In this document: positions 5,961 through 64,000 of the stretch, in pieces
Position numbering within the stretch: the first letter of the stretch is position 1
How the letters are laid out: each line of letters begins with the position of its first letter
Source of the DNA: Candidatus Harrisonbacteria bacterium
Lineage (GTDB): Bacteria > Patescibacteriota > Minisyncoccia > UBA6257 > WO2-44-18
Length of the DNA stretch: 64,000 nt
Direction: 5' to 3'
Assembly: GCA_016182295.1 (NCBI GenBank)
Contig: JACOXP010000007.1
Coordinates: forward strand, 11,457 to 75,456
Program-made: the position numbers and the translations under genes
Notes under the pieces: generated by a model
The model's input: only the letters and a program-made list of their open reading frames with translations
Told to the model about the DNA's origin: nothing
Databases searched by the model: none

Positions 5961-6590
5961 TCAGTAAGACAAAAGGGGGCAAAAGAAGATAAGATACAAA
6001 AAGTCAAAAACAAAGAAAGAACTAAAAAGTACGAGCGTTCCTGTAATCATCAACACGTACACAGTCCGAGAATATATAGAAGGAATAGATCTATCTTTTT
6101 CGGTCTTAAAAAGATTTATGGATTCTTTATCAATCTCATTTAATTCTTTAAAAGCTGTTTTGCTGATGGTACGGGTAGAAATCCAACTATTGTAGAGAAC
6201 CATGAATTTCTCGTTTCTTTTTTCGTAAAACTCAATCAGTTTACGACGTTCGTCTTCAATTGATTTAAATTCTGCTTGGTATTTCTGCTGTGTCCAAAAG
6301 AGCCCGTAGAAAAGAGAGCCAAGCAAAAGAATTTCTCCGACAAAGAAAAGAGGAACGCTTTGGACATACCCAAAAGCTGTAAAACCAAAACCAGCTATTA
6401 AACCAACTGCACCGATAACTGTTGCAGCAAACCCGATGGACTTAAAGTAAATATCCAACTGTTTTGTTCCTAAATCCTCAAGAACTCGTCCTTGGAGCTG
6501 CAGGCTATTCGAGCCGAAATTGTCGTAAAATTCCTTAAACAACGTATCGTCCAAAAGAATTTGGTCTGGATTTTCGTGCGGTTTTTGCAT
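5961..6590 (-). CDS. Hypothetical membrane protein
   Basis: Several hydrophobic segments (AATVIGAVGLIAGFGFTAFGY; TGTLVLFSSFFVF). Confidence 0.45.
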   Translation of the reverse strand: MQKPHENPDQILLDDTLFKEFYDNFGSNSLQLQGRVLEDLGTKQLDIYFKSIGFAATVIGAVGLIAGFGFTAFGYVQSVPLFFVGEILLLGSLFYGLFWTQQKYQAEFKSIEDERRKLIEFYEKRNEKFMVLYNSWISTRTISKTAFKELNEIDKESINLFKTEKDRSIPSIYSRTVYVLMITGTLVLFSSFFVFDFLYLIFFCPLLSY

Positions 6591-31794: not shown

Positions 31795-31936
31795 CTTTCG
31801 TTCGTATGTCAAAACTGGCTTTTTGTTTGAAGTGTGTTAGTTTACCAAAAATTTTAGATGTTGCTGATCAAAGCTGCGAATGACTTAACATTCGGCAGAA
31901 ATTCGGCTATGCTGGTTGATATAGGAGGAGATTGAA

Positions 31937-32056
31937 ATGAATAAATTGGTAGTAAAAAGAAAAGATTTGGTTTTAGTTGGAGCTGTGCTCCTACCGATGA
32001 TAGTAGCAACGATTATGTATATGCTGTTACCGGGGGAAGAAGCAAAGGAGTTCCTG
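31937..32056 (+). CDS. Candidate 39-aa membrane peptide
   Basis: GGAGGAG Shine-Dalgarno 6 nt before the ATG. MNKLVVKRKDLVLVGAVLLPMIVATIMYMLLPGEEQRSS. Below the ORF-track size cutoff. Confidence 0.25.
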
Positions 32057-32132
32057 AAGTTCATTACCATTCCATTCGGAAAGTAATAGATGTCGAAAAT
32101 CGACAGGACGAGATTTTTTTGAGCTTGAGTCA

Positions 32133-32165
32133 AACCCCGATCAATTGATCGGGGTTTTTATTTTT
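32133..32165. terminator. Rho-independent terminator
   Basis: aaccccgatc-aatt-gatcggggttttt. Confidence 0.6.
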
Positions 32166-32284
32166 GAGATCAGGGCAACAGCACATGACAACCTCGAATT
32201 ACGAATAAATAAATGTAAAAAAAACTGGCCACGCGGTTGGCCAGGTTTCCAGAAATTAAAATGGTGTTATAAAATCACGTAGGT

Positions 32285-32500
32285 TCAAGCTGGTTTTTCC
32301 GAATCATCAGGCAATTCAAGATCTATTTGATTCAATAGGGCGTTGATCTCGACTATCCTATTGTGTCTACGTTTCTTCTCTTCGCCTGAGTATTTCTCAA
32401 TATCAAGAGCGAGAAGCGCCATTTCTTCGGTCAATTTCGAGATGCGGTCTAGCACCGCCGCTTCCCTGATAAGTTCCAAGCGTTCCTCGTTGGTCAGCAT
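32285..32500 (-). CDS. Hypothetical small coiled-coil protein
   Basis: 71 aa with a GGAGGAA Shine-Dalgarno upstream. Terminator at 32226..32256. Confidence 0.5.
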   Translation of the reverse strand: MLTNEERLELIREAAVLDRISKLTEEMALLALDIEKYSGEEKKRRHNRIVEINALLNQIDLELPDDSEKPA

Positions 32501-32829
32501 GATTCTTTCATTCCTCCACGTAATTACTATTAAAGAACATTGCCATTCTATAATTAGTAAACGCAGGCGTCAATTCTCGAAGTGACGACCTTTGGAAGTC
32601 CTCGTCTCTGGATTGACTCATTGACCCGTCCATAAAATTCCAGAGGCGAGAACTGGAAATTCTCGATCAAGGTGTACCAGTGGGAGAAAACGATGTTGGG
32701 TTGGGCCATGCGTTAGTTCCCCATCATTTTTGCCACCCACCAGATGGTGTGGGATCCCAGAGACCGCTTAGAAACAAAAGCAATTAGGCCAGTGTTCTAT
32801 AAGATAGTGCATTTCAAGAAGGAGGTATT

Positions 32830-33024
32830 GTGATCGAATATTTGGGCTTACCATTAGAGATTGAGTACCTAGTACAGTTTGTGCTAATGTTTACGAGTTT
32901 CGGTTTCTTTCTTTTGTCTGTGTTCGTTTCTAATGAGCGCTTGAGGCTCCGATACGCCTTTACAACATTACTGTTGATAGTCATAACCGTCCTTCTCTTT
33001 GGCGCTCCGCCCTTCTTTAGCTAG
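32830..33024 (+). CDS. Small 2-TM membrane protein
   Basis: AAGGAGGT Shine-Dalgarno and a GTG start; hydrophobic 64 aa. Confidence 0.4.
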   Translation: MIEYLGLPLEIEYLVQFVLMFTSFGFFLLSVFVSNERLRLRYAFTTLLLIVITVLLFGAPPFFS

Positions 33025-33032
33025 GGCGGAGT

Positions 33033-33077
33033 TTTTCTTTCTCTCCTTTTTTTAACGCAAGACTAATTTGAGATGAA
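33033..33077. repeat. 45-nt direct repeat, copy 1 (ttttctttctctcctttttttaacgcaagactaatttgagatgaa)
   Basis: Identical to 34853..34897. Confidence 0.85.
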
Positions 33078-33254
33078 CTAGGGAAACGATTAAAACTAGA
33101 AATGTAAATAAAACGAGAAAGCATTTCATTAGACAATGATAGTGCCTTTCGTTAATAACTAAAACCGAGGGTTCATTTACCCTCGGTTAGGAAAGTCGCG
33201 TGGACAGCATCTGCCCACTTACAAGAATCTAACACAAGCGATTGGGCAAGTTAT

Positions 33255-33542
33255 TTGGGCTTAAGGAGTGGTGCATATGGATGTTGCCTTGGGGTATTGA
33301 GCGGTTTAGTATTACTTGTTATTCATTGGACTAGGAAATATGTCCCTAGCACAAGACCTGAACTTGGCAACAAGTATTTCAGCGTCGCGTACATCTATGT
33401 CGGTATTATGTTCTTACTGCTCGTAGGTTATTTCTTCCGCTGGGCATCCAATAGCACCTGGTACCGTATCGCTAAACGTGAGTGGGCTTATGCGTTGAGT
33501 AACGAACGTGGTGGCGAAGCCGAGAAGAAACCTAGGAAGTAA
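33255..33542 (+). CDS. Hypothetical small membrane protein; start uncertain
   Basis: 95-aa ORF with hydrophobic segments. No clean ATG with a Shine-Dalgarno. Confidence 0.3.
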   Translation: MGLRSGAYGCCLGVLSGLVLLVIHWTRKYVPSTRPELGNKYFSVAYIYVGIMFLLLVGYFFRWASNSTWYRIAKREWAYALSNERGGEAEKKPRK

Positions 33543-33612
33543 AAGACTTGCGTCACCGGTCATGGCACACATTATAAAAAAAGAGGCCTTAAGGCCTCTT
33601 CGTGTTGTATGA

Positions 33613-33900
33613 TTACCTAATTTCCAATACATAGAGCATCGAGAGTAGCGTGATAGATATTATCGTAAAACAGACGCCGTAAAATTCCCAAGCAGAGAGA
33701 TATCCATAGGAGGCGCTCTCTGGGTAATAGTTTGGAAAGGCGGGTAGAACCATTCCCGTGGCCATGCCCAGTAGTGCCTCCTGGGAGATAATAAATACTC
33801 CCACTGGTTGCAGATTAGGGAACTGTCGGGAGAAACCTCTGAAGACAAGATACGAAAGCACGAGAATCGAAGACGCAGTCAGGAACCACCATAATTCCAT
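33613..33900 (-). CDS. Hypothetical 3-TM membrane protein
   Basis: Start trimmed to MELWWFL, which is preceded by AAAGGAGGAA. Terminator at 33572..33600. Confidence 0.5.
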   Translation of the reverse strand: MELWWFLTASSILVLSYLVFRGFSRQFPNLQPVGVFIISQEALLGMATGMVLPAFPNYYPESASYGYLSAWEFYGVCFTIISITLLSMLYVLEIR

Positions 33901-34423
33901 ATTTCCTCCTTTCTTGAAAACGGTGGTCGGGCGGGAATGTAACAAACAATGATTATGAAATGCTCCCTCCGTGTTCTAGTTAAGTAACGACGTTCTCGGT
34001 GGCGGTACAGCTGTATCGCCAAATGGTGTGTTAAATCTGAGTCTCAAGCTCAGCGAAAGTGCTGATTCGTTTATACAACGAAGCCATGAAGTTTGTCAAG
34101 AGCCTGTCTGCTAGATTCAACTCTGAAGTGCAACACTCACTACTTCTAACGGGGAGAGATTTCAGGGGTTCACCCGCCGCGGCGTGCGGCTAGCGAACCC
34201 GACTGCCATTCGGCAGCTTGCCGACACCCTCGCCTCGGTCTGCGAACTGATCGAGGGGCAGGCTGGGATCGAGTCGGCGTAAGACAAGTCACCCATCACT
34301 TCGGTATCTCACTTCACCCATGGGAGGGACACCCTGCCTGCCTGGAGAGTGTCCCTCTCCACTTCCGTGGACGGACTAACCACAGATTTACGCTTTCCTT
34401 CTTCATGTGATACATTAATCACA

Positions 34424-34789
34424 ATGACTCGTAAGCCGTTGATAATATTTGGAATGATTCTTGTAATCCTTATTCTTATTGTAGTAGTACGTTTTTATAT
34501 TTATATTAACTCGCCCCTAACGACGATGACGGTAATGTTTAATCAAGATGTAAGTTATTTCCGTGCATGGACGGTAATACTCAGTCTGGGCCCAGCAATA
34601 AACCTTGCTAGCGTGATGTCGCCATTAGCTTCGTTCCCTCCATCGGGGGAGCACTTCGAAAAATACCGATATTTTATGCTTACTGTTCGGATCAAGGATG
34701 TCACAAACTTAGAAACGCAGTTGAGCAAGAATCCATTGGTGTCCAGCGTAAATACGTCACAGCTTCCTCTTTTACTACCAGTGTTCTAA
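34424..34789 (+). CDS. Hypothetical membrane-anchored protein
   Basis: ORF 34349..34789. A start at MTRKPLIIFGMILVILILIVVV is likely. Confidence 0.4.
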   Translation: MTRKPLIIFGMILVILILIVVVRFYIYINSPLTTMTVMFNQDVSYFRAWTVILSLGPAINLASVMSPLASFPPSGEHFEKYRYFMLTVRIKDVTNLETQLSKNPLVSSVNTSQLPLLLPVF

Positions 34790-34852
34790 TAATGCCTGAT
34801 GTTATGAACTGGACAGAACAGGACATTTAAAGATATGTCAATTAAGGCGGGC

Positions 34853-34897
34853 TTTTCTTTCTCTCCTTTTTTTAACGCAAGACTAATTTGAGATGAA
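34853..34897. repeat. 45-nt direct repeat, copy 2
   Basis: Identical to 33033..33077. Confidence 0.85.
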
Positions 34898-34914
34898 TTA
34901 TGATAAATGACCAA

Positions 34915-34975
34915 AAAAAAGGGCCGCGAGCTTTTCCCGTGTGCGTACACGGAGCTCGCGGGCCCTGTTGAGTGG
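34915..34975. terminator. Strong GC-rich hairpin terminator for the minus-strand two-gene membrane operon
   Basis: aaaaaaaa-gggccgcgagc...gctcgcgggccc. On the minus strand it is followed by a T8 run. Confidence 0.6.
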
Positions 34976-34998
34976 TGGAAATCACCACGCTGAATTTA

Positions 34999-35217
34999 TC
35001 AAAGGGATCTGACTTGCTTCCTCCTGCGAAAGAGACGAACCACAAAGAAGATGAGAATCATGATGAAGTAAAAGGCAATCGTTAGATAGACCCCAGTTAA
35101 TCCAACTGTGAACCATGATATCAATATAAATGCGGAGCAAAGGATGCTAACTATACCCAAATAAGAAAAGAATGAGTGGCCCGGCCTTAGAGAAGATGCC
35201 TGCTCCTTTTTTATCAT
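34999..35217 (-). CDS. Small 2-TM membrane protein
   Basis: 72 aa. Its ATGA overlaps the upstream gene. Confidence 0.45.
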   Translation of the reverse strand: MIKKEQASSLRPGHSFFSYLGIVSILCSAFILISWFTVGLTGVYLTIAFYFIMILIFFVVRLFRRRKQVRSL

Positions 35218-35651
35218 TTCTCGCTCCTGACCGTCAGCTCATTTCTCTGACGCATCTCCTCGTGACAGACAAGTAGTACTGCTAATGCCAGAAAAGCTAG
35301 CCAGATGGCCATTGAGAACGAAAACAGGCGTATTGAGCCGCTCTCAAAAAGGAGCAGTTCAAGTGTTTCCTTGGGACGGTCGATTGGCCAGAAGTAAGGT
35401 ATGCTGCTAAGGAAGACAAAGGTTCCAAGGAATGGAAGCAGAAGGGTGGCAGCTAGGGTTTCTGCGTCCGTGCGGCCGTTGCGCAGGTAAACGAACGCCA
35501 CGGTACAGGCGAATGTCAAGGTGGTCATGACAACCCCTAGATAGAACCAGAACATGGTATGCCCTCCAAAGAATAGAATCCAACAAAAAAGCCATTCCCC
35601 AAGGCCCCGTCGGGCGGCGAAGAATGACTTGATAAAGTTGTAAAAGTTCAA
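35214..35651 (-). CDS. Hypothetical polytopic membrane protein
   Basis: 145 aa with 4 TM segments. Confidence 0.45.
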   Translation of the reverse strand: MNFYNFIKSFFAARRGLGEWLFCWILFFGGHTMFWFYLGVVMTTLTFACTVAFVYLRNGRTDAETLAATLLLPFLGTFVFLSSIPYFWPIDRPKETLELLLFESGSIRLFSFSMAIWLAFLALAVLLVCHEEMRQRNELTVRSEK

Positions 35652-35853
35652 AGCAATGGTAACATGTCTTGCTTTTTCCTGCTAGTGTCAGCCGCCTGCC
35701 GGAATTCTGCCCATGGTAATACAAAAGCTTAGAATTTATTTTTAATCCTGATAACTGGCGACTGTGGGTTTGATTGAATAAGTGCCTTGTGCTATCATTG
35801 CTTCGAATCGGGTTGGTAAGTTGATATGAAACGCTCTTTGAAAGGAATAAGTG

Positions 35854-49625: not shown

Positions 49626-50270
49626 ATGAAACGTGTTGCCATCTGGTCCTTTGCCATCGCCATCGTTGGCCTGGCTCTGTTCGGTTTGATTAAACTCGGC
49701 ATTAATAGCGCGCCAAATCAATCAGCGTCGCTTATTGACGCTGTCTCTCCGAAGGACTGGGGCAAGGGCGCCGAGGAAGCAAAAGTTGTTTTGGTTGAAT
49801 ACAGCGACTTTCAATGCCCGGCTTGCGGGGCGTATTATCCATTATTGAAACGGCTCAGTCAGGAATTCACCGGTCAGATTAAATTCGTTTATCGCCACTT
49901 TCCCTTAAGCCAAATTCACGCCAACGCCGAACCTGCCGCCCGCGCCGCGGAAGCCTCCGGCAAGCAGGGAAAATTTTGGGAAATGCACGATCTGATTTTC
50001 GAAAATCAGACTAATTGGTCTAATCAAAAAAACGCGGAGGTTGCTTTTATTTCCTACGCTCAATCCCTACAACTCGATATTGAGCGGTTTAAAACCGATT
50101 TGAATTCCCAAGAAGTCAAAGAGTCGGTGGCTAATGATTATCAGAGCGGCATCCGATCAAAAGTTAACGGCACCCCCACCTTCTTCCTAAACGGCCAGAA
50201 AATCCAAAACCCAAGAAGTTATGATGAATTTAAAAACATCATCGAACAAGCCATCAACGCCAATCTCTAA
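49626..50270 (+). CDS. DsbA-like thiol:disulfide oxidoreductase (thioredoxin fold, CPAC)
   Basis: N-terminal TM anchor. VEYSDFQCPACGAYYP is the active site. Confidence 0.8.
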   Translation: MKRVAIWSFAIAIVGLALFGLIKLGINSAPNQSASLIDAVSPKDWGKGAEEAKVVLVEYSDFQCPACGAYYPLLKRLSQEFTGQIKFVYRHFPLSQIHANAEPAARAAEASGKQGKFWEMHDLIFENQTNWSNQKNAEVAFISYAQSLQLDIERFKTDLNSQEVKESVANDYQSGIRSKVNGTPTFFLNGQKIQNPRSYDEFKNIIEQAINANL

Positions 50271-50697
50271 ATGGCTGATCGGGGCCCTGACCCTGGTCAG
50301 CTTTGCCGGTTTTCTAGACGCCGTTTATCTCACGACCAAGCATTACCTTGGATCACCGGTCGTCTGCTCAATACTCGAGGGCTGTGAAGTTGTAACTACG
50401 AGCCAATACGCCACTTGGTTCGGAATTCCGGTAGCCTTACCCGGAGCAATTTATTATTTATTGATTTTTCTTTTGACTGTCGCCTATCTTGACGCGAAAA
50501 AAGAACGTTTTTTGCGTTTAGCCGCCTACCTTTCTCCCATAGGATTTCTCGCGTCTCTTTGGTTTTTATATCTTCAACTTTTTGTTATTAAAGCGCTCTG
50601 TCTTTATTGTTTGATATCCGCCCTTACGTCAACCTTGGTGTTTGTTATAGGCGTCATTTTATTAGTAAGATTGAAAAAAAATTTACCAATCTCTTAA
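50221..50697 (+). CDS. Vitamin K epoxide reductase (VKOR) family membrane protein, the DsbA re-oxidant
   Basis: Loop cysteines CSILEGC and TM-helix CLYC. Overlaps the DsbA gene end by 50 nt. Confidence 0.7.
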   Translation: MMNLKTSSNKPSTPISKWLIGALTLVSFAGFLDAVYLTTKHYLGSPVVCSILEGCEVVTTSQYATWFGIPVALPGAIYYLLIFLLTVAYLDAKKERFLRLAAYLSPIGFLASLWFLYLQLFVIKALCLYCLISALTSTLVFVIGVILLVRLKKNLPIS

Positions 50698-53798: not shown

Positions 53799-53966
53799 TT
53801 ATCGTTTAGCTTCTTTGTGAATCGTATGTTTACGACACCAGGGGCAGTGCTTTTTAAACTCCAGTTTGCGGTCAACGGTTTTTTTATTCTTGTGCGAGTA
53901 AAAATTAATACGGTTGCAAACCGAACATTTTAACTTAATAAGATTGGCGCCAAACTTTGACGGCAT
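53799..53966 (-). CDS. rpmG: 50S ribosomal protein L33
   Basis: MPSKFGANLIKLKCSVCNRINFYSHKNKKTVDRKLEFKKHCPWCRKHTIHKEAKR has the L33 Cys4 pattern (C-x2-C...C-x2-C). Absent from the ORF track. Confidence 0.75.
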   Translation of the reverse strand: MPSKFGANLIKLKCSVCNRINFYSHKNKKTVDRKLEFKKHCPWCRKHTIHKEAKR

Positions 53967-53990: not shown

Positions 53991-55763
53991 TTAATTTTGC
54001 AAATTACTGATATTGTTTTTAACTTTTCCGCGAACGCGGAAAAAGAAATAAGTAAGAAACAGAAGTGACAATAGAATAATCGCCGAAAGGAAAATTGATG
54101 CCTGCGCGTAACTGACTCCCATCACGCCGAGTAAAGAGCTTGTCAAAACGGCGTTGAATGTTTTTGGATCGGACCATAAATAGCTGTTGCCTTGAGCAAC
54201 GCCGGCTTTCACCTGCCACTTGCCCGGAGGCAATCCCAGATCTTTCGCGATTGACCATTCCCCCGCTTTATCGCTTTTAACCTCAACGCTTAGCGTTTCT
54301 TCGCCGTTTTCGTTAATGAAAACCAAACTGACCGCGCTATCGGCTTCGGCGGTGCCCGACAAGTAAAAAATTTCTTCTTCCGGATAATAAACGGGCGGGG
54401 CTATTGAGATAGACGGCGGAGATGCCGCGTTGACAATGCCGGGCAATAAAAACCCTGAAAACAAAGCAATGGCCAGAAACACAGCCGTTGGCGGTTTGCG
54501 GAAAGAGTTAATTAATTTCTTCCAATCATCCCGCAGGGCGTAATAAATACGACCGCGATGCAAACGCATCAAACCCAATGAAATCGCGCCGATTAATAAA
54601 GCCAAGGATCCCAAAAAGGCCGCGACCCATTTCCAGGGAACAAGAAATCTTCCCAAATCCACTCCATCCGGGCCCACAAAACGATAAATTGGTCTTACTA
54701 TGCTTAAAGTCACGAATTCTTCTCGAAAATTACCGACTTTGTCCACTGCTTTTATAATAATATGGTATCGGCCAACGTCAAGATTGCTTAAAGCGTAAGG
54801 CGAGAATGCCTCAAAAAATAGCGATCCCTCATCCTGATCATCCTGCGTCAGATTGACGATCTTTAATTCAAAATGGTCCAACCCGGATAATTTATCAAAC
54901 GCCGCGAATTGCAGAATAATATCCTTTTGAGAAGTTCTCGCGTCGGGAACAACTTCAATGTCGAAAGATTCCGGAGGACTGACGTCTATTTTTGCGGCGA
55001 AGTGCGAAACGCCGCTCCACACGCCTTGCGCTTTTTGCCTTAAGTGCAGATACCAAATGCCGCTTTCCAAATCGGAAAATGAAACCGAATTTGCTTTCGT
55101 ATCACTAACCGCGTCGGGGAAACCCGATGAATCCTGATCAAAGGAATAACTAAAATCCTCAACCAGCGGATTTCTGTCCCAGCTTAAAATTATCGTCGAG
55201 TCGCGATTCCATTCGTTCGGATCCGGATGAGTTGATGAGAAGATTTGGGGACCCAGCGGAGCAGCCACGTTAAAATTGAAAAAGGCGGGCGCGGTCTGCC
55301 CTAAAGCATCAGTGGATGGTGATTGGCTGGTAAATACCCGCGTATTTTGCCCGAACCGGATTTCTCCGCTTCCGGGAGCAATTATCCTGAAGGTGAAAGT
55401 CAGGACGACTCCTTTCGAAACAGTCGTTCCCGGACTGGGCATATTGCCGGAGAAATAGATTCTGCCTTCACGATTGGAAAATGACGGTGGGACAATCCAG
55501 TCCTGAATTAAGGACTGGCCGATGGATGGTCCGGAAAGCTGAATTTTATCTTGGGGGAAAAAGAGTTCCACTTCCAACCCGCTAACTACCTGTTCTTTGG
55601 TGTCCAATAAAATTGAGAGGTCAAAAGTACTGCCGACAATAAACGACCCGCTGGGTGGGCTTAATAATAAAGTTGGGGAAGCCGCTCGCGCGGGATTAAT
55701 CGAGAGAAATAGAAATAGAACTGCAAATAAGAGAGAGAGAGAGAGAGGAAAAGTTTTTTTCAT
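53991..55763 (-). CDS. Cohesin-domain surface protein, paralog 1 (with an extra C-terminal module after the first TM)
   Basis: Signal peptide. LLLSPPSGSFIVGSTFDLSILLDTKEQVVSGLEVELFFPQDKIQL...FSNREGRIYFSG is a cohesin-like N-domain. Middle domain carries THPDPNEW...WYLHLRQ. Two further hydrophobic segments flank a second signal-peptide-like stretch (LPGIVNA-ASPP) and an extra ~100-aa domain. Confidence 0.65.
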   Translation of the reverse strand: MKKTFPLSLSLLFAVLFLFLSINPARAASPTLLLSPPSGSFIVGSTFDLSILLDTKEQVVSGLEVELFFPQDKIQLSGPSIGQSLIQDWIVPPSFSNREGRIYFSGNMPSPGTTVSKGVVLTFTFRIIAPGSGEIRFGQNTRVFTSQSPSTDALGQTAPAFFNFNVAAPLGPQIFSSTHPDPNEWNRDSTIILSWDRNPLVEDFSYSFDQDSSGFPDAVSDTKANSVSFSDLESGIWYLHLRQKAQGVWSGVSHFAAKIDVSPPESFDIEVVPDARTSQKDIILQFAAFDKLSGLDHFELKIVNLTQDDQDEGSLFFEAFSPYALSNLDVGRYHIIIKAVDKVGNFREEFVTLSIVRPIYRFVGPDGVDLGRFLVPWKWVAAFLGSLALLIGAISLGLMRLHRGRIYYALRDDWKKLINSFRKPPTAVFLAIALFSGFLLPGIVNAASPPSISIAPPVYYPEEEIFYLSGTAEADSAVSLVFINENGEETLSVEVKSDKAGEWSIAKDLGLPPGKWQVKAGVAQGNSYLWSDPKTFNAVLTSSLLGVMGVSYAQASIFLSAIILLSLLFLTYFFFRVRGKVKNNISNLQN

Positions 55764-55771
55764 TGTTGTGT

Positions 55772-57016
55772 TCAGCCATGATTTTTTTTCTTTTTGCCGT
55801 GAAAAGGCCTGGCTGATTTAATAATATCATTCTTAATATGATGTTTTATATGAGCGCGGTGATTTTTGTAAATCCACAAAACCATTACAAGCAAAATTAA
55901 AGCCAAACCGCCCAAAACCAGCAAAATCATTAGCTCTAAGCCGTCAGCGCCAACCAATTCATAAGCGGGATCAACGATAGTAATGGTTACTAACTGGTCC
56001 GCTCGATTCCCCGCCCGGTCAAAAGCCCTGACAATAACGTGGTATCGGCCAATGTCTAAATTCGAAAGAAAATAGGGGGAATCAACGTTAAAAAACAAAG
56101 GATCTTCAATGCTTCCCAAATTTAACGGCACTAGTTTAAACTCGTAATGATCTAGGCCGGATAAAGAATCCGCCGCGGAAAATTCTACGATTAAATTACG
56201 TTCAGCGGTACGTTTGTCCGGCGAAACCGCTACTTTAAAATCGGAAGGCGGATTTTTGTCTATTCGAATCGTGAAGTGGGAAACGCCGCCCCACACTTCT
56301 TTCACTTTTTGACGAAGATGAAAATACCAAACGCCGCTTTCCAGATCGGAAAAAGAAGCGAAAGTTTCGCTGGTTTCGCTGATAGAGTCCGGAAAACCGG
56401 AAGGGTCGTGATCCAGAGAATAACTGAACCCATCGGCTAAGGAATCTTTAACCCAAGTAAAATTCACCGTCGAATCGCGATACCAGTTTTCCAAATTGGG
56501 ATGGGTGGGGGAAACTATTTCAGGGCCGATTGACGGCGTGGGGTTTAGCGTCAGAAAAGCCGGAACGGTCTGGCCAAGAATATCGGCTGGCAAGCCATCG
56601 CCGGCGAATACCCGCGATTTTTTGCCAAATTCAATTTGAGCGCTGCCGGGCGCGATCACCCGAAAATTCAAGGTTAAAACAACGCCGTTGGAAGTCCGAA
56701 TTCCTGGGTTTTGCGTATCGCCGGACAAATAAATCCTGCCTTCGCGGTTGGAAAAAGACGGCTGGGTCGTCCAGGATTGAATTAAAGACCGACCAACCGA
56801 CGGGTTGGCAAGTTGCAGTTTATCGGGGGGGAAAAAGAGTTCCACTTCCAATCCGCTAACCACCCGTCCTTTGGTGTCCAATAAAATTGAAAGATCGAAA
56901 GTACTGCCGACAATAAACGACCCGCTGGTCGGGCTAAGCAATAAAGCCGGGGACGCCGCCCACGTCGTATTGAGAGAAAAAAAAAAGAAAAATCCTAGAA
57001 ATAAAGCATGAGCCAT
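55772..57016 (-). CDS. Cohesin-domain surface protein, paralog 2
   Basis: Same architecture: signal peptide, cohesin-like domain (LLLSPTSGSFIVGSTFDLSILLDTKGRVVSGLEVELFFPPDKLQL), conserved middle domain, C-terminal TM and basic tail. Confidence 0.65.
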   Translation of the reverse strand: MAHALFLGFFFFFSLNTTWAASPALLLSPTSGSFIVGSTFDLSILLDTKGRVVSGLEVELFFPPDKLQLANPSVGRSLIQSWTTQPSFSNREGRIYLSGDTQNPGIRTSNGVVLTLNFRVIAPGSAQIEFGKKSRVFAGDGLPADILGQTVPAFLTLNPTPSIGPEIVSPTHPNLENWYRDSTVNFTWVKDSLADGFSYSLDHDPSGFPDSISETSETFASFSDLESGVWYFHLRQKVKEVWGGVSHFTIRIDKNPPSDFKVAVSPDKRTAERNLIVEFSAADSLSGLDHYEFKLVPLNLGSIEDPLFFNVDSPYFLSNLDIGRYHVIVRAFDRAGNRADQLVTITIVDPAYELVGADGLELMILLVLGGLALILLVMVLWIYKNHRAHIKHHIKNDIIKSARPFHGKKKKNHG

Positions 57017-57022
57017 AATTCA

Positions 57023-58294
57023 TCATGACTTGTCTTCCGGTTTTTCAAAAGCGCGTTTAACTTTCCAAATATCATCGTAAATGGAGCGCTTAACATGAGT
57101 GCCGTGCTTTCCCAAAATCCGGAAAATAATTATTAACAAAATCAACGCCGGCAAACCGACGACCAGCAAGACCGCCAACCAAGGTATGAAAAATTTTCCT
57201 AAATCTACGCCGTCCGGTCCGATAAATTTATAAATAGGGGCGACTATGTTAACAGTGACTAACTTGTCTCGATAATTCCCCGCTTTGTCGAAAGCCCTGA
57301 TAATAATATGGTATCTTCCAGTATCCAGATTGGAAAGAAGATAAGGGGAGGTGATTTCAAAAAATAACGGGGTGTCAACGCTTCCTCGGCTTAGCGCAAC
57401 TAGTTTAAGCTCATAATGGTCAAGACCGGATAGCGTGTCCGTGGTAAAAAACTGCAGGAATAAATTTCGCTCGGCGGTGCGCTCGTCTGGCAAAACGGTA
57501 ATGTTGAAATCCGAAGGCGGGCCACTGTCTATTCTGAATGGAAAGTGCGAGACGCCGCCCCATACGGCTCTGACCCTCTGGCGAAGATGGAAATACCACA
57601 AACCGTCGTCAAGACTGCTGAAAGTGTTTGACGTCCTAATACCCTCGGATTCTATATCCGGAACTCCGGATGGATTCTGGTCTATGGAATAACTGAAACC
57701 GTCCGCGCCGCTGATATTTTGCCAGATAAAAGTCGGGTTGGGATCGCGATACCATTTTTCCGGATCTGGATGGCTGGGCGAAGCGATCTCTGGGCCGGCG
57801 GCGGGCGACACTGAAATGCTGTAAAAGGCCGGGGAAGCGTTTGCCAGGATATTAGTACCGAGGCCGTCGTTGGCTAAAATCCGCGTCCGGTTCCCAAAAG
57901 AAATCGTCGCCTCTCCGGGAGCAATCGCCCTAAAAGTTAAGGTTAAAACTACACCGTCGGAGGTATTGATTCCCGGCGACGGAATACCACCGACAAAACG
58001 CGCCCGTCCTTCGCTGTTGGAAAAGGTGGGGGCGGACGGCCAAACTTGAATTAATGAACGACCAATAGACGGGTTGGTAATTTGCAGTTTATCAGCCGGG
58101 AATATCAACTCTACTTCAACTAAATTGGCTGATAGCCCCTTCGTATCCAAAACAACCGAAACATTAAACGTCCCGCCTGTTAGAAAAGAACCCGAAGACG
58201 GACTAAGAGCCAAAGTCGCCGGACCGGCCGCTGGCGCCGGAATCGGCAAAATCAACACTAATAAAAATAAAGTTAAGAATAGTTTTTTAATCAT
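57023..58294 (-). CDS. Cohesin-domain surface protein, paralog 3
   Basis: LALSPSSGSFLTGGTFNVSVVLDTKGLSANLVEVELIFPADKLQI...FSNSEGRARFVGG, then a middle domain, then TM and basic tail. Confidence 0.65.
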   Translation of the reverse strand: MIKKLFLTLFLLVLILPIPAPAAGPATLALSPSSGSFLTGGTFNVSVVLDTKGLSANLVEVELIFPADKLQITNPSIGRSLIQVWPSAPTFSNSEGRARFVGGIPSPGINTSDGVVLTLTFRAIAPGEATISFGNRTRILANDGLGTNILANASPAFYSISVSPAAGPEIASPSHPDPEKWYRDPNPTFIWQNISGADGFSYSIDQNPSGVPDIESEGIRTSNTFSSLDDGLWYFHLRQRVRAVWGGVSHFPFRIDSGPPSDFNITVLPDERTAERNLFLQFFTTDTLSGLDHYELKLVALSRGSVDTPLFFEITSPYLLSNLDTGRYHIIIRAFDKAGNYRDKLVTVNIVAPIYKFIGPDGVDLGKFFIPWLAVLLVVGLPALILLIIIFRILGKHGTHVKRSIYDDIWKVKRAFEKPEDKS

Positions 58295-59070
58295 CCTCCA
58301 AAAATTCCAATAATAAATTTAACGATGAATTTTATGATGCCAAAAATAAAATTTAAAATACCCGTTCCGCCGCTAGTTGCTTCTTCGCCGGTTGTCGCGG
58401 AAACTGAAGGAGTTTTTTCAACTGGCGAGCCGGCTACCAGGCCACTGCCGCCAATTAGGGAAGCTTGTCCAAAACCTACGATTTCATCGCTCTCAACCGC
58501 GCTGGTCTCCGAAAGATCATTAATTACGTCAACAATATCCGGCGCCCATTGAAAAAACAAAATACTTAAATCGGCTAAATCAATAACTAGGTCCTTGTTA
58601 AAATCGGCCGGATTTTCTTTCGGCGGCAATTCTGCCAAATAAAGAAAGACGCTCAAATCAATCAAATTTATATAACCGTCATTGTTTAAATCGTAATCGC
58701 TCGGAACGACAAACCCGGGGATTTCTCTTTCGATAAATTCCCTAATATAATTTCTGATTAAACTTCCCCCGCCGGGATTGGCGGCGGTAATTTCTTCAAC
58801 CGCTTCTTCAACCGACTCTACGACCGCGGCTGGCAAAACCAGGATACCGGATCCGAGCCTAAAACTATCCGATGTCAAATCGCCACTGACAACCGGCTGG
58901 CCTAAATTTCCCTCTATAACAAAACCGCTGGAAGTTACCCGATGACCGGATGAAAGCAACTCCTGCCGGTCAATTTTAAAATTGGTAGAGGTAATTATCT
59001 GAGCGGAAGCAAAACCGCCGCTAATCAAAAAGATGGCAATAATTAAAGAAAAAACCGCTCTTGACATCAC
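58291..59070 (-). CDS. Secreted protein with a dockerin-type (type I-like) duplicated Ca-binding repeat and a C-terminal hydrophobic anchor
   Basis: Signal peptide. The two repeats are DYDLNNDGYINLIDLSVFL and DFNKDLVIDLADLSILF (D-x-N-x-D-G-x-I-N-x-x-D pattern). Ser/Thr/Gly linker. C-terminal GILNFIFGIIKFIVKFIIGIFGG. Confidence 0.6.
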   Translation of the reverse strand: MMSRAVFSLIIAIFLISGGFASAQIITSTNFKIDRQELLSSGHRVTSSGFVIEGNLGQPVVSGDLTSDSFRLGSGILVLPAAVVESVEEAVEEITAANPGGGSLIRNYIREFIEREIPGFVVPSDYDLNNDGYINLIDLSVFLYLAELPPKENPADFNKDLVIDLADLSILFFQWAPDIVDVINDLSETSAVESDEIVGFGQASLIGGSGLVAGSPVEKTPSVSATTGEEATSGGTGILNFIFGIIKFIVKFIIGIFGG

Positions 59071-59096
59071 GATTATATTATATCAGATAAACCGCG

Positions 59097-59669
59097 CTAT
59101 TCTTCGAACGTCCAAGTGTGCATTATCCCCGCTAAAAGCTCGTCTATCTGTGGATAACCGGTTATTTCATAAAGATAACCATTGTGAACCAGCCAAACTT
59201 CTCGCGTGCGGCCGATAGTCGGATCGTCGCTCCAGAAAAGCAACGCTCTTTGGTCCCTGTTGGGCCCTATTAAGATCTCCAGCGAATCATCAATAACCGC
59301 TGACGGCAAATCCCGCAGAATTCTTTCTTCAGTCAATAAATCGTCCAGTCGCTGAAATTTGGGAATTTCGTCCGCGTCTCCATAAAAAGGCGCGATAAAA
59401 ACTTGAAATCCCGACTGATCCCCTCCGGAAAAAACAATGGTTTCGGCGCCGTCTTGTTCGTCAAAATTTTCGACAGACCAGCCGCGGGGATATTCCAAAG
59501 AAAATCCGTATTTTCTATTTACGTATTTTTGAAAATCATCGCCCAGAATCAATTGTTTTCCAAAAAGGGCGGTTTGATTCCAAGAATCAACTGGGAACCA
59601 TAACAGAAATGCCACAACCGCAATAATCATCAAAAATCCAATAATTATTATTTTCTTGTTATGCAACAT
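59097..59669 (-). CDS. Hypothetical N-terminally anchored membrane protein
   Basis: IIIIGFLMIIAVVAFLLWF TM, then a 160-aa extracytoplasmic domain. Confidence 0.5.
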   Translation of the reverse strand: MLHNKKIIIIGFLMIIAVVAFLLWFPVDSWNQTALFGKQLILGDDFQKYVNRKYGFSLEYPRGWSVENFDEQDGAETIVFSGGDQSGFQVFIAPFYGDADEIPKFQRLDDLLTEERILRDLPSAVIDDSLEILIGPNRDQRALLFWSDDPTIGRTREVWLVHNGYLYEITGYPQIDELLAGIMHTWTFEE

Positions 59670-59689
59670 CGGAAATTATTCTAACATGT

Positions 59690-62600
59690 CTAACGCAATC
59701 TGACATTTCTTAACCTGACGTGGCCTCGCAGGCGCAGGATTTCCGGTTTCTCTATGGATATTTCCGGATAAGTCGTGTAACCGCCTCCGCCTTCCTGCGC
59801 GAAAGAACCGCCGCCGGATTGAACGGCTTGTAAACAAAAGGTTTTTCCGCCCTTCGCCACGGTATCCAGCGAAGTCGTGGAAACCGACAAAGCGAAATCA
59901 AAAAGCATGCTGGCGCCGGCGTCAACGGTTCCCTGGGAGCTGGTAAAATTATTGGATTCGTTATAGGTCTGATTGACTACCGCGTGGCTGGTGCTGGTAG
60001 CCGCGTATCGCGGATCCTGATAATTGGCCGTCAAGGCCGCCCCATCGGAAGGGGTGAAGTTATCCGCCCAAGTCATAGCGGTCGTGCCGCCCACATCGCT
60101 GAAAGAAGCCGAAGAACAGCCGCCTCCCGGTTTTTCGCCAACCTGAAGACGGCTGGTGGTGGAAGTAAGATCGTTATCGCCGCCAACATCAAAGAGTAAT
60201 CTTAAACGAATCGGGGTCCCCGATTCCGGAGCGATAATCGGCGTGTTGTAACCGCCGGCGCCGCCAACGTCGGTTGAATCGTCATTAGCAAACCAGCGGT
60301 AAGCAATTTGAGTTAAATTAGTCGCTGTCGTTGGGGCCTCGACCGCTTCAGTGGTAAACGTGCTACACCCCGAATCGGTGTAGGCATTAGTGTCATCCGG
60401 ATCCCTCGCTGATGCTTTCCACCAGTATTGCGTGCTGTTGGATAACGCGTCATCCGAATTTAGGGTATAACTTCCCTGCGTGCCGGAAGTGAAACATTGG
60501 GCGGGCTCGTTGGTGCAAACGGCGTTCGTTCCCGACCAGGTATTTTCGTAAGTGTAAAGCGCTCCGCCATTGACCCCGGCTATCAGATTAGTGCCGTCCG
60601 AATCCGTGGCAACACCCCACCAGCTCAAGTTCGTATCTCCGGCCGGTCGGCGTTCGTACCAATTTTCTCCGGAATCCCACGAAGTCCAAAGCCGGGTAGT
60701 TTCCCCGGCGATTAAAAAAGATCCGTCGCTGTCGGCGTCGACTCCCTGCCAGGATTTACTAAGCAAGCCGTTTTTACCAGTAGATTGGGCATACGACCAA
60801 GTGGAGCCCGTACTGGAAGACATCCAAAGCGCGCCGCCATTGATCGAGCCGACCATAAAAGTGCCGTCGTCATCAAGAGCGGCGCCCCAAAAATTGCCAG
60901 ACAATTCACTGACCCAATTCTGACCGGAATCTATCGAAGACCAAAGACCAACGCCTTCCGCTCCAAGAAGGACAGAACCGTCGGAGTCAGCCGCTGAATG
61001 TCGCCAGTCATTAGGCGAACCGACGCCCGCGGCCGCGCCCCAATTAGCTCCGGAGTCGGTTGAAAACCAAAGCTCGCCGGTGGTGGCGGCATCAAACACT
61101 CCGGCAATCAGCACGGAACCATCGGCGTCAGAACCGGCGCCTCGCCAATAACGGGTATTGTTCCCATCCGGCTGACGTTCATCCCAATTAGCTCCGCCAT
61201 CACTGGAGGTGTAAAGACGGTCCGCGGTACTGGCGCCAGCGATCAGATTGGAACCATCGCTGTCGGAGTCAATGGCTCGCCATTCTTTATTTAAAGCTCC
61301 GGCCGGCTGACGTTCGTCCCAGGTGGCGCCATAATCATCGGAAGTGTAAAGTCGGCCGGCATTTTGCCCCGCGATTAGATTGGAACCGTCAGAATCGGAG
61401 CCGACGCCGAACCAGGAATTAGTTCCGGACAGACGCAACTCCCAAGCATCGGCTTCATCATGCGTCTGAAGAACGGTGGTGCAACTACTTTCCGAATAGA
61501 TAGTAATTTTATAATTGATATTGCTGGAATTCGGATCGGTCGCGGTTACAAGAAAAGTCGGAGTGACGGAAACGCCAGTAGCGGCATCCGCTGGTGAATC
61601 TTGGGTAGGGGCGTTCGGCGGCGAAATCGTGCCGCTTTCATGAGTGAGAGTGTTGGCAGCCGACATAAAAATCATATCCCATTGAGAGCCGGCGTCGTCT
61701 ACTTTGGCGTTCGGCCAGCTGTTGCCGGTGCCGGAATTGATCGTCGCGCCTGAATCCCAATCCGTGCTTGCGACCCAATCAGTAGCGGTTGAACCAGGCG
61801 CTTCGATAAATTGCCGGACTATATTTCCCGAAGAATTTTTCGTAAAAAGCGCGTAATAATCGGGAGTTGATCCGGCGTAGAAAGTCAGCGTCGGCTGGGC
61901 GTTAACGTTGCCTTCGGTAGTGCTGTCGCTGGATCTTTTTGTAGAAGCGGAAGTGCCGCCGTCTTTGTCTATAAACCAAGTATTCAAACAATAGGCGCTG
62001 GCGCCTGAACAGAAAGTAGAGCCGTTAGAAAACCAAGTAACCAGAACGCGGCTGTTGGTGGAATCGGCCAGAGAATTGACGTAAAGATAGCTGGTCGCGG
62101 AAACGGTTTCCCCGTCTTTGGAAGTTACGCTTTGCCAGGTCCAGGTCGGCGGAGTGTCGCCACAGCTGTTAACGCAATTTGCCACGACGTATTTCAACGG
62201 ATCATCGACTTCTGAGAAAAAAAGATACAAACGTTTGGCGGCCGTGCCGGCGCCAGGCATTTGCTCAACGGAGGCTATAAAATTCTTGCTTTTTGCTTGG
62301 GAATCATAAATTGTGTCTATAGTTCCATCGCCGCTTGTGGCTGAAACGCCGCCCCAGTTGGAGCTCGCGGCGCCAGTGCATGTGCCAATGCAACGGATGT
62401 AGTAAACACCGGAAGCGGAGGTTGGTCCGGCGGTGGTTTTTGTGAAAACAACTCCGGGCTTGTTGTTGTGGGTCAGCACTATGCCCGGCCGGTAATTTTC
62501 ATTGTTGGAGGCGCCGGCGGCCAAAGTATTATCACCGGCGAAAGTTATGTCGGAAATATCATTTCCGGAATATACTATCGTCGCTTCCGCGTAGACAATT

Positions 62601-62989
62601 GACTGCCTGTTGGAAACGGTCGCCTGATAAGCAAGAAGGAGTTTGTTGTTGGTTGTGTCATGAACGGCCTGCACATTGCTGACGGCGGTGCCGATAGTTC
62701 CGCTGTCGGTCGTCCAGCTGGAACAGCCGGAATTGCAATAGGCAACCTGAATGACGCTGCTGGTATTGATAAAGACGGCCAGCCGGTTGTCGTTTGAATC
62801 GCGAAACAATTTTCGGCCGTTGGAATACTGGGTGGAATTGGCCAAAGCGGCCGTTGACACCGTCGTCGCCGCTTTGGCTTGCTTAATTTCCGGAGGGAAA
62901 TTTAAAACCCGCGGAAAAGGCGAAAATGTCCATCCCGCGATGATAAAAAAGACGATAAAAAATCTGATTATTTTCCTAGTTTTTGCCAT
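59690..62989 (-). CDS. Giant (1099 aa) secreted/anchored protein with a BNR/Asp-box beta-propeller
   Basis: N-terminal hydrophobic anchor. At least six S-x-D-x-G-x-[TN]-W repeats: LYTSDDYGATWDE, LYTSSDGGANWDE, WFSTDSGANWG, WSSIDSGQNWV, WMSSSTGSTWS, WTSWDSGENWYE. Ser/Thr/Gly-rich throughout. Confidence 0.75.
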   Translation of the reverse strand: MAKTRKIIRFFIVFFIIAGWTFSPFPRVLNFPPEIKQAKAATTVSTAALANSTQYSNGRKLFRDSNDNRLAVFINTSSVIQVAYCNSGCSSWTTDSGTIGTAVSNVQAVHDTTNNKLLLAYQATVSNRQSIVYAEATIVYSGNDISDITFAGDNTLAAGASNNENYRPGIVLTHNNKPGVVFTKTTAGPTSASGVYYIRCIGTCTGAASSNWGGVSATSGDGTIDTIYDSQAKSKNFIASVEQMPGAGTAAKRLYLFFSEVDDPLKYVVANCVNSCGDTPPTWTWQSVTSKDGETVSATSYLYVNSLADSTNSRVLVTWFSNGSTFCSGASAYCLNTWFIDKDGGTSASTKRSSDSTTEGNVNAQPTLTFYAGSTPDYYALFTKNSSGNIVRQFIEAPGSTATDWVASTDWDSGATINSGTGNSWPNAKVDDAGSQWDMIFMSAANTLTHESGTISPPNAPTQDSPADAATGVSVTPTFLVTATDPNSSNINYKITIYSESSCTTVLQTHDEADAWELRLSGTNSWFGVGSDSDGSNLIAGQNAGRLYTSDDYGATWDERQPAGALNKEWRAIDSDSDGSNLIAGASTADRLYTSSDGGANWDERQPDGNNTRYWRGAGSDADGSVLIAGVFDAATTGELWFSTDSGANWGAAAGVGSPNDWRHSAADSDGSVLLGAEGVGLWSSIDSGQNWVSELSGNFWGAALDDDGTFMVGSINGGALWMSSSTGSTWSYAQSTGKNGLLSKSWQGVDADSDGSFLIAGETTRLWTSWDSGENWYERRPAGDTNLSWWGVATDSDGTNLIAGVNGGALYTYENTWSGTNAVCTNEPAQCFTSGTQGSYTLNSDDALSNSTQYWWKASARDPDDTNAYTDSGCSTFTTEAVEAPTTATNLTQIAYRWFANDDSTDVGGAGGYNTPIIAPESGTPIRLRLLFDVGGDNDLTSTTSRLQVGEKPGGGCSSASFSDVGGTTAMTWADNFTPSDGAALTANYQDPRYAATSTSHAVVNQTYNESNNFTSSQGTVDAGASMLFDFALSVSTTSLDTVAKGGKTFCLQAVQSGGGSFAQEGGGGYTTYPEISIEKPEILRLRGHVRLRNVRLR

Positions 62990-63010
62990 TGTCAGTCACC
63001 CCTATACTAA

Positions 63011-64000
63011 TTATAGGGATTGACTGGTACTGCCGCAAATAATCTTATTAACCAGGTCCGAAGAGGTGCTTATTTGGATCCAACTGCCGCCTTCAAAATG
63101 CTGGAGTTGAAGCTGGCTTTCGTTGTATCCAACAGCCGTGTCCCATTTTAAGCAGATCGAGGTGGCGCCACTGCGGGTGGCGGTAGTTGTTATATTCCAA
63201 CCCTCTTCTTTTGCTCCCTGCCTTGTCCTGAAGGTTGCTCCGGTAGAGGTCTGGCCCAAATAGGAATAACCCACATTGCCCGCTCCGGTCACGGAAGAAA
63301 ACACCAGTTTGAAACTTATATCGCCTAAAACGGGATAAACTTCTATATTGGAACCGGTCTGAACGTGAGTATGATCGGATATTACCACTCTTGCCCGGCC
63401 GCGCTCATCAGCGCCTACCTTTGCTCCAGGAGCGCCGAAAATAAAATCGGGCCTCCCATCTTTGTTAATATCTATACCTCTTCCATCGGCATCAGCGCCG
63501 CCACTTTCCCCGGCGCCCGCGGCTATCTGATCCCAGAAAAGCTGGAGCTTGCTATTAACGACGTTCGCTCTTCCTTGGCCATTCTCCATTACTGAAAGCG
63601 AAGCGATATCATTGTAGCCATCGTTATTAATATCGCCTAAAACAGTAATGCTGTTCCCGAATAGTTGATATCTGCTTGTGCCGCTGTATTGGGTTAAAAG
63701 GGTGTTAGTCGCTCCGGAAAAAACTCTAATTGATCCGGCTCTCGGTTGCCCAGCGACGGTCTCCCTGGAAGACGCCGCGAAGTCAACGGTGCTGTCGTTA
63801 TTAACATCATCAACAAATCCAACCGAGACGCCAAAAGCGCCAAATCTTTCCGGCGTAGTCGTGTCCTGGGTGTAAATTGTCGAAAAATCGCTTCCAGAAA
63901 GAACAATTACCCTGCCTTGAGCAAATTGAATATTGGTGTAGAAAGAGTCGCCTATAACAAAATCCTCCACCGTATCACCGTTGATATCAAAACCGGTGCT
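63011..64000 (-). CDS. FG-GAP repeat (integrin-alpha-like beta-propeller) protein; the 5-prime end runs off the window end
   Basis: FGVSVGFVDDVNNDSTVDFAA, QLFGNSITVLGDINNDGYNDIA and DINKDGRPDFIFGAP are FG-GAP Ca-binding repeats. The ORF continues beyond 63970 with no stop. Confidence 0.7.
   Translation of the reverse strand, partial: STGFDINGDTVEDFVIGDSFYTNIQFAQGRVIVLSGSDFSTIYTQDTTTPERFGAFGVSVGFVDDVNNDSTVDFAASSRETVAGQPRAGSIRVFSGATNTLLTQYSGTSRYQLFGNSITVLGDINNDGYNDIASLSVMENGQGRANVVNSKLQLFWDQIAAGAGESGGADADGRGIDINKDGRPDFIFGAPGAKVGADERGRARVVISDHTHVQTGSNIEVYPVLGDISFKLVFSSVTGAGNVGYSYLGQTSTGATFRTRQGAKEEGWNITTTATRSGATSICLKWDTAVGYNESQLQLQHFEGGSWIQISTSSDLVNKIICGSTSQSL

Follow-up and report, generated by a model that had tools for sequence, protein, structure and literature searches.

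The pairing of cohesin and dockerin modules is established in protein complexes of Clostridium thermocellum and Clostridium perfringens. Here we describe a gene cassette in which one dockerin protein is encoded directly upstream of three tandem cohesin paralogs in a Candidatus Harrisonbacteria bacterium, a member of the candidate phyla radiation (CPR), or Patescibacteria; a first-pass annotation of this DNA had guessed a CPR-like host, correctly. A stretch of 64,000 nucleotides (nt) from contig JACOXP010000007.1 (11,457 to 75,456), called the window below, was analysed, and all positions refer to it. Paralog A of the cassette, 423 amino acids (aa) long, matches HYT03_01935, from a Candidatus Harrisonbacteria metagenome-assembled genome, with 100% identity. 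For our best explanation taken as a whole, we hold with somewhat more confidence than doubt that window positions 53991-59070 are one copy of a cassette conserved across Patescibacteria, and that its protein products join non-covalently into a complex at the outer side of the cytoplasmic membrane.

By analogy, the cassette would work most like the non-cellulosomal cohesin–dockerin complexes of C. perfringens and the anchoring scaffoldins of cellulosomes. As in the glycosidase and toxin complexes of C. perfringens, a fibronectin type III (FnIII)/immunoglobulin (Ig)-like domain follows directly after the cohesin (GH84C, PDB 2w1n/2o4e), a two-repeat Ca-binding dockerin is carried by a separate secreted protein (NagH dockerin, PDB 2jnk/2ozn), and the system is not cellulolytic; in the structural and profile comparisons, the C. 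perfringens entries rank among the best. The C. perfringens modules are appended to secreted enzymes, whereas those of the cassette are on non-enzymatic proteins, its cohesins are anchored by a C-terminal helix and occur as one to five tandem paralogs, and they belong to a fixed operon with a dockerin gene and a partner that combines an Ig domain with a transmembrane (TM) helix. Unlike the anchoring scaffoldins of C. thermocellum (OlpA, OlpC, SdbA; PDB 3ul4, 4dh2, 5k39), the cassette has no SLH or sortase anchor, no carbohydrate-binding module (CBM) and no glycoside hydrolase (GH), there is no multi-cohesin scaffoldin in the window copy, and the host is a small-genome CPR bacterium. The cassette differs from both kinds of complex in that its leader, the dockerin protein, carries a PamT-like module. 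A cellulosome was considered and dropped, because domain-model scans found no GH or CBM domains in any of the seven proteins of the gene row in the window and because each cohesin protein has a single cohesin; the host had already been annotated as non-cellulolytic, in line with these scans. Peer et al. are said to have surveyed non-cellulosomal cohesin and dockerin modules in 2009. To our knowledge, neither that survey nor work on the non-cellulosomal cohesin of Archaeoglobus fulgidus (PDB 2xdh) describes a conserved operon of this architecture. Since NCBI names several of the homologs "cohesin domain-containing protein" and non-cellulosomal cohesins and dockerins are known generally, the kind of system is already known. 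Among the searchable papers on cohesins or dockerins in CPR, Patescibacteria, Parcubacteria and related groups, we found none describing the cassette or its conservation in CPR.

The Pam pilus of CPR bacteria (PamA/B/E pilins, PamC/D chaperones, PamR anchor and PamT tip) is also a CPR surface system of Sec-secreted beta-sandwich proteins, several of them C-terminally TM-anchored. In Candidatus Mycosynbacter amalyticus, PamT is the proposed tip subunit, and donor-strand exchange with chaperones anchored in the membrane has been proposed for pilus assembly (preprint 10.64898/2026.03.03.709456). The N-terminal module of the dockerin protein (N-module) aligns with the first third of the PamT model, whereas the other Pam families are unmatched in the cassette and different CPR classes predominate. 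The preprint on the Pam pilus (10.64898/2026.03.03.709456) mentions neither cohesin nor dockerin.

The WxL/Csc operons of Firmicutes (DUF916/WxLIP) likewise encode secreted and C-terminally TM-anchored sandwich proteins that are thought to form non-covalent surface complexes, and WxLIP_PGBD domains occur in upstream genes of related CPR clusters. However, the WxLIP domain is absent from the window cluster, and the joint of WxL/Csc complexes is not a cohesin–dockerin joint.

The dockerin protein

The dockerin protein (259 aa; 58291..59070, minus strand) is predicted to consist of a signal peptide, a PamT-like beta-module, a Pro/Ala/Gly linker, a two-repeat dockerin and a C-terminal hydrophobic helix. 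The stop codon of its gene and the start of the paralog A gene share 4 nt (ATGA), an overlap that shows the two genes, as far as sequence can, to be translationally coupled. The dockerin module (aa 125-178; 58537..58698, minus strand) has two F-hand loop-helix repeats, DLNNDGYINLIDLSVFLYL and DFNKDLVIDLADLSILFFQW, at aa 127-146 and 156-175. Across an alignment of 41 sequences, the residues expected to bind Ca (D127, D131, D138, D156, N158, D160 and D167) are invariant or at least 90% conserved, and the D-L-S motif opening each dockerin helix is conserved likewise. AlphaFold2 modelled residues ~125-178 as two loop-helix units with a predicted local distance difference test score (pLDDT) of 91-94. 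When profiles of the module and of the family were compared with the PDB, solved dockerins came first (E 5.5e-7 to 7e-5), ahead of generic EF-hands and with both repeats aligned; the top match was 2y3n_B (5.5e-7), followed by 4fl4_A, 6kg9_A, 2jnk_A (NagH of C. perfringens) and 1daq_A (CelS). Foldseek with the model of the whole 259-aa protein gave no match at E<=0.001, because the dockerin makes up too little of a model that has low confidence over most of its length. The first-pass annotation had read two dockerin-type Ca-binding repeats in this protein, and from the conserved ligands, the modelled loop-helix units and the profile matches we accept it as carrying a genuine two-repeat dockerin. 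Pfam Dockerin_1 (PF00404; cutoff 22.9) is passed by two cluster-associated relatives, with 24.9 bits for the L005 ortholog and 26.7 bits for a distinct Ig+dockerin protein in the L006 cluster.

A word-based (k-mer) homolog search with the dockerin protein retrieved one relative only, and orthologs in loci L004, L005 and L008 were found by reading the genes upstream of cohesin-family genes. An exhaustive HMMER search returned 600 clusters at E<=1e-3, dozens of which are 170-300-aa proteins that match over the N-module and the dockerin. A conserved Cys pair (C…DLNCDG) is present in most dockerins of the family and lost in the window copy. Furthermore, dockerin proteins and several giant upstream proteins of other loci (L005 5657-8914, L009, L065) end in the same type of tail, a Gly run and an amphipathic or hydrophobic helix of ~22 residues without a basic tail; the window copy of this tail is at 58297-58365 (aa 236-258 of the dockerin protein). 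This common tail may be a C-terminal sorting or anchoring signal in CPR.

The earlier description of the 259-aa protein rested on its dockerin repeats, which stand, and overlooked the N-module (aa 25-80; 58831..58998, minus strand). This module has three S-x-x-F strand motifs, scores 66.6 bits against its family hidden Markov model (HMM), and aligns to positions ~5-86 of the NCBIfam model CPR_pilus_PamT (NF058579, "CPR-type pilus protein PamT"), with 18 bits for the window protein and up to 32 bits (E 7e-8) for orthologs. Every PamT-like leader examined (window, P0122, L005, L008) matches the first ~80 positions of the PamT model. These scores fall short of the equivalog cutoff of 240 bits over the 241-position model. 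Moreover, searches of the seven window proteins (E<=1) and of 40 members of the cohesin family (E<=0.01) gave no match to any other Pam family in NCBIfam (models that we assume to be in release 20). Because the scores are far below 240 bits and the other Pam families are unmatched, the resemblance is that of a shared module rather than of a Pam operon; a true Pam operon was dropped as a candidate since the match is limited to the N-terminal third of PamT. The same triple S-x-x-F N-module is fused to an NCBIfam "GC-type dockerin" (28.3 bits) in P0222, a high-GC, non-CPR-looking protein of 143 aa, and therefore the architecture of module plus dockerin is older or wider than CPR.

The cohesin paralogs

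Three cohesin paralogs follow on the minus strand. Paralog A (423 aa; 57023..58294) has a signal peptide, a cohesin (aa 24-165; 57800-58225), two Ig-like domains (aa 166-360; 57215-57799), a TM helix (aa ~371-396; 57107-57184) and a basic cytoplasmic tail. Paralog B (414 aa; 55772..57016) has the same architecture, and paralog C (590 aa; 53991..55763) adds a fused second module to it. Over their whole length, the paralogs share 49-55% pairwise identity; by domain, identity between A and B is 54% (cohesin) and 61% (Ig pair), and between B and C it is 66% (cohesin). Against the family HMMs, all three give E-values of 1e-61 to 1e-89 (paralog B, 1e-62 and 1e-87), and thus their resemblance is not due to chance. 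The cohesin-paralog family has more than 1000 members.

The AlphaFold2 model of paralog A, built from a 40-sequence alignment (mean pLDDT 87.3), has a signal-peptide helix, three beta-sandwiches (about 26-161, 188-255 and 265-350) and a long C-terminal helix (372-416), and all three domains are modelled as complete sandwiches with high confidence. In this model, the N-domain is a nine-stranded jelly-roll beta-sandwich that can be superposed on solved cohesins; Foldseek with the model gave TM-scores of 0.75-0.78 to CaCohA2, and the cohesin plus FnIII double module 2w1n ranked second. Pfam Cohesin is matched by 20 of 40 family members (best E 1.6e-9). The N-domains, called cohesin-like by the first-pass annotation, thus have a predicted cohesin fold. 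What had been described as a conserved middle domain of ~200 aa is indeed a conserved region, but it is modelled as two Ig/FnIII-like sandwiches, and in many of the 40 family members the two domains after the cohesin match Big_13, Y_Y_Y or fn3. The middle region is therefore a pair of Ig-like domains, a predicted stalk on which the cohesin is held away from its TM anchor. The three paralogs are predicted type-I membrane proteins, each with a cohesin on a two-Ig stalk and one C-terminal helix as anchor.

The size and cohesin architecture first given for paralog C hold, and its extra C-terminal 165 residues (aa 426-590; 53994..54488, minus strand) are a fused Big_13-like Ig+TM module (Pfam Big_13, E 8e-4) that is encoded by a separate gene elsewhere. 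The module is preceded by a TM-loop-TM hairpin, the second helix of which resembles a former signal peptide (…IVNA/ASPP). Its counterparts in other loci (for example, L005 and L008) are one to four separate genes directly downstream, encoding proteins of ~240 aa with an Ig domain, a TM helix and a cytoplasmic coiled coil.

Conservation of the cassette

GTDB species representatives were scanned with the paralog alignment, which gave 488 loci, and the best 80 were analysed; component HMMs were run on all open reading frames (ORFs) of 88 loci. Most of the best 80 loci carry a CPR/Patescibacteria label (Harrison-, Giovannoni-, Brenner-, Sung-, Nealson-, Ryan-, Colwell-, Portnoy-, Magasanik-, Uhr- and Moranii-bacteria, and Paceibacterota), about a dozen are labelled just "bacterium", and two are automated records with the label Gammaproteobacteria. 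In 67 of 68 evaluable loci, spread over many CPR lineages, a dockerin-bearing gene lies immediately upstream of the first cohesin paralog on the same strand, as it does in the window. The gaps between the two genes are mostly below 65 nt, with a median of tens of nt and many overlaps. This adjacency, read from gene order, is strong evidence that the cohesin and dockerin genes form a functional unit.

The other parts of the cassette vary in number and form. One, two, three, four and five tandem cohesin paralogs were found in 29, 25, 12, 12 and 6 loci, respectively. The earlier list of operon parts had the dockerin and the cohesins right and overlooked a third conserved component, the Big_13-like Ig+TM module, which is present in 70 of 77 loci (fused to a paralog in 46 and stand-alone in 25). 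A PamT-like module is found in 35 of the 67 leaders, and leaders without it carry two Ig domains and a C-terminal dockerin; one leader in L089 has both the PamT-like module and Ig domains before its dockerin. The dockerin is thus constant and the "cargo" end of the leader variable, as expected of an anchoring module. Recurrence in nearly all related genomes examined points to a built-in, undescribed protein assembly on the cell surface.

In two loci, a second pair of cohesin and dockerin genes lies a few kb from the main cassette (L088 13590-17837; L053 14156-16257), which suggests more than one cohesin–dockerin pair per genome. Two other loci have selfish-looking small genes between the dockerin and cohesin genes, with the gene order kept: a 23S_rRNA_IVP/bAvd-like gene in L006 (6029-6406) and a DUF559 endonuclease-like gene in L090 (9550-9906).

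Proposed mechanism and alternative explanations

The gene directly upstream of the cohesins encodes a predicted Sec-secreted adaptor with a two-repeat Ca-binding dockerin, and this dockerin would plug into at least one of the cohesins that are held on stalks at the membrane; we infer Ca-dependent docking by analogy with cellulosomes and the toxin complexes of C. perfringens. Docking would tether the N-terminal module of the adaptor at the cell surface, where this module would be the functional or attachment end, possibly acting by beta-strand complementation like the proposed tip PamT. The co-transcribed FG-GAP and Asp-box proteins encoded upstream would be lineage-specific adhesin-like cargo or neighbours and not part of the core. 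The likely role of such a complex would be in the envelope or host-contact architecture of an episymbiotic cell.

CPR/Patescibacteria make up a large share of bacterial diversity, and how they build their surface and attach to hosts is largely unknown. The cassette is common, its gene order is tightly conserved and its joint is of well-understood biochemistry, so that it offers a directly testable handle. If the explanation is true, cohesin–dockerin biology would extend from cellulosomes to a membrane-anchored, non-enzymatic system in episymbionts, and the cassettes would be a natural orthogonal set of cohesin–dockerin pairs for protein engineering. The resemblance to the PamT N-terminus hints at a link with the newly described CPR pili.

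Several observations weigh against this explanation. Pfam Dockerin_1 scores 17.9 bits over residues 126-171 of the window protein, below its cutoff of 22.9. Pfam Cohesin (PF00963; cutoff 24.1) reaches 14 bits at best, in only one of the window paralogs. AlphaFold2 modelled the N-module with a pLDDT of only 45-60, as loose short strands in an incomplete sheet, and the role proposed for this poorly modelled module is speculative. There is one dockerin per three cohesins here, and per up to five elsewhere. A mirror-tree analysis (partial Mantel test) of dockerins and adjacent cohesins gave a partial r of -0.07 (p 0.77) overall, whereas the Ig-type leaders alone gave a partial r of 0.31 (p 0.004). 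Lastly, sequence identity across CPR lineages is 40-55%, and conservation this high fits a housekeeping envelope role better than host-specific adhesion.

The missing overall co-evolution signal and the unequal numbers, one dockerin per one to five cohesins, speak for the alternative that survives best, which we nevertheless consider unlikely. Here, there would be no binding between the cohesin-like and the dockerin-like modules; each of them would have another target (host-cell glycans or proteins, peptidoglycan, or the S-layer), and the genes would adjoin only through acting in the same envelope process. In Saccharibacteria and Omnitrophota, proteins with dockerin domains have been interpreted as modules for glycans or adhesion (PMC10633639, PMC10066038), and no cohesin gene lies next to that of SEML1_0315, an essential dockerin protein of Saccharibacteria; both points also favour separate targets. 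SEML1_0315 of Southlakia epibionticum, found essential by transposon sequencing (Tn-seq), was itself considered as a copy of the cassette and ruled out, as it is a stand-alone 927-aa multi-Ig protein; no "cohesin" entry was found in the supplements searched.

A bolder form of the cohesin–dockerin explanation, unlikely as a joint claim, is that the cassette is the membrane anchor of an unrecognised CPR surface fibre or adhesin system that combines two principles of assembly, in which a cohesin-held adaptor presents a PamT-like half-sandwich that takes a donor strand. The strand would come from pilins or from co-transcribed giant adhesins (FG-GAP, Asp-box or LamG proteins), so that variable host-contact proteins would be plugged into a conserved Ca-dependent socket, and several cohesin paralogs would permit several cargoes or multivalent anchoring.

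Alternatively, the cassette might be a housekeeping scaffold of the wall or S-layer, a CPR counterpart of the WxL/Csc-type operons of Gram-positive bacteria that tethers an envelope layer and does not contact hosts; cohesin–dockerin may still be its joint. The high sequence conservation across distant CPR lineages agrees with this, as do two upstream genes in the clusters with Ig-type leaders that carry PF06030 (37.9 bits; cutoff 27.3) and the presence of Big_13-like Ig+TM+coiled-coil partners with weak SlaB-like matches. However, domain scans found no WxLIP, SLH or other wall-binding domains in the window cluster, and the SlaB matches are insignificant. We regard a scaffold of this kind as decidedly unlikely.

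Finally, a divergent Pam-type donor-strand fibre system, in which a filament is nucleated or capped by the PamT-like module, the paralogs with their several sandwiches and TM anchors take the part of the Pam chaperones or anchor (PamC, PamD, PamR) and the dockerin and cohesin resemblance is secondary, is very unlikely: the consistent N-terminal PamT matches, the incomplete sheet of the N-module, the beta-sandwich proteins with C-terminal TM helices encoded in Pam operons and the nine-strand N-terminal sandwich of Pam pilins (preprint 10.64898/2026.03.03.709456) are in its favour, but the PamT scores, far below the cutoff, come from just a third of the model, the remaining Pam families are unmatched, the paralog domains are modelled as complete sandwiches, about half of the cassette leaders lack the PamT-like module, and Pam pilins are found mainly in Saccharimonadia and Microgenomatia and not in Paceibacteria (same preprint).

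Upstream proteins of the gene row

The cassette is the downstream part of a row of seven co-directional ORFs on the minus strand (53991-64000), each recovered where the first-pass annotation had placed it. The intergenic spacings in order of transcription are 21, 20, 26, -4, 6 and 8 nt; the range of 4 to 27 nt reported earlier is correct, except that its "4" is the ATGA overlap and not a gap. A weak terminator-like hairpin (53911..53923, minus strand), found by a consensus scan only, lies 68 nt 3' of the last gene and is a possible operon end.

The first gene of the row encodes an FG-GAP repeat protein (3' part, 63011..64000, minus strand) and extends past the window edge. On L001, a longer Logan contig of the same genome, the protein is 567 aa in full and its upstream neighbour is a 128-aa secreted protein. 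Its annotation as an FG-GAP protein is borne out by Pfam FG-GAP (PF01839; cutoff 22.1), with 44.1 bits for the fragment and 84.3 bits for the full-length protein with 5 repeats. The second gene (59690..62989, minus strand) encodes a secreted protein of 1099 aa with a propeller of seven Asp-boxes at aa ~530-810. The seven motifs (six of them S-x-D-x-G-x-x-W) are at residues 550-777, ~45 apart and each after D-x-D-G-S/T; this blade spacing agrees with the BNR/Asp-box propeller first proposed, while the Pfam BNR models are unmet (E 0.76). Only two or three close homologs of the 1099-aa protein were found in 5.8 billion proteins, it has no sequence relatives in the PDB, and jackhmmer comparison with the large proteins encoded upstream in other loci gave no relatives. 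The third gene (59097..59669, minus strand) encodes an N-terminally TM-anchored protein of 190 aa with weak PsbP-like matches only.

These three proteins had been counted as members of the system, and they are not part of what is conserved. Among the 80 species-representative loci, the 1099-aa protein has a partial match in one (L024), the FG-GAP protein is absent from all 80, and the 190-aa protein has homologs in two (L030 and L055) and otherwise only in L089. The latter is a close relative (75% identity) that was looked up separately; it has the FG-GAP, BNR and 190-aa proteins, a small TM protein, the dockerin protein and three cohesins in one row, and the full window arrangement recurs only there. 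Since L089 keeps the row, the linkage of the large proteins to the cassette is real but lineage-restricted. An HMM scan found no cohesin or dockerin elsewhere in the window, including the BNR, FG-GAP and 190-aa proteins; the hidden dockerins suspected in the BNR and FG-GAP proteins were thus not found, and weak Ca-loop matches occurred in the FG-GAP protein only. Because these large proteins contain no hidden dockerin, their suggested display through cohesin–dockerin binding is unsupported.

Large variable secreted proteins upstream of the cassette are a recurring theme. In 24 of 44 loci, there is an upstream co-directional protein of at least 700 aa, some with DUF2341/Laminin_G_3 domains. Directly upstream of PamT-like dockerin genes in 18 loci is a family of ~140-aa N-terminally TM-anchored proteins, "YQAVFLTNGQVYFGKL" (motif YQAVFLTNGQVYFGKL…LVKLGGELHGP; for example, L065 3780-4193 and L089 5255-5653), which matches no Pfam family and is missing from the window. 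Clusters with Ig-type leaders have a regular upstream set of proteins of ~1100-1600, ~365, ~210 and ~315 aa (L048, L039, L079 and others), and therefore the conserved operon is larger in these lineages. The PF06030 domain mentioned above, the peptidoglycan-binding domain of WxL-interacting proteins, is on two members of this set (4861-5976 and 6786-7742 in L048, and the same positions in L039, L079 and others).

Flanking region

The flanks of the cassette consist of housekeeping genes, including typA/BipA, DsbA and VKOR, ligA, a P-type ATPase and 11 tRNAs. A 4-kb segment (31812-35851) has no ORFs of at least 150 aa and no Rfam matches at the gathering threshold, and it contains short ORFs on both strands. 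A gene for a DsbA-like thioredoxin (49626-50270, plus strand; Pfam DSBA, 70 bits) overlaps a VKOR gene (50221-50697, plus strand; 88 bits), and the pair, an extracytoplasmic disulfide-forming system, lies 3.3 kb from the cassette. The P-type cation ATPase (23388-26006, minus strand) has Cation_ATPase_N and C domains in a Ca2+-pump-like architecture, and its presence near a Ca-dependent module is probably a coincidence.

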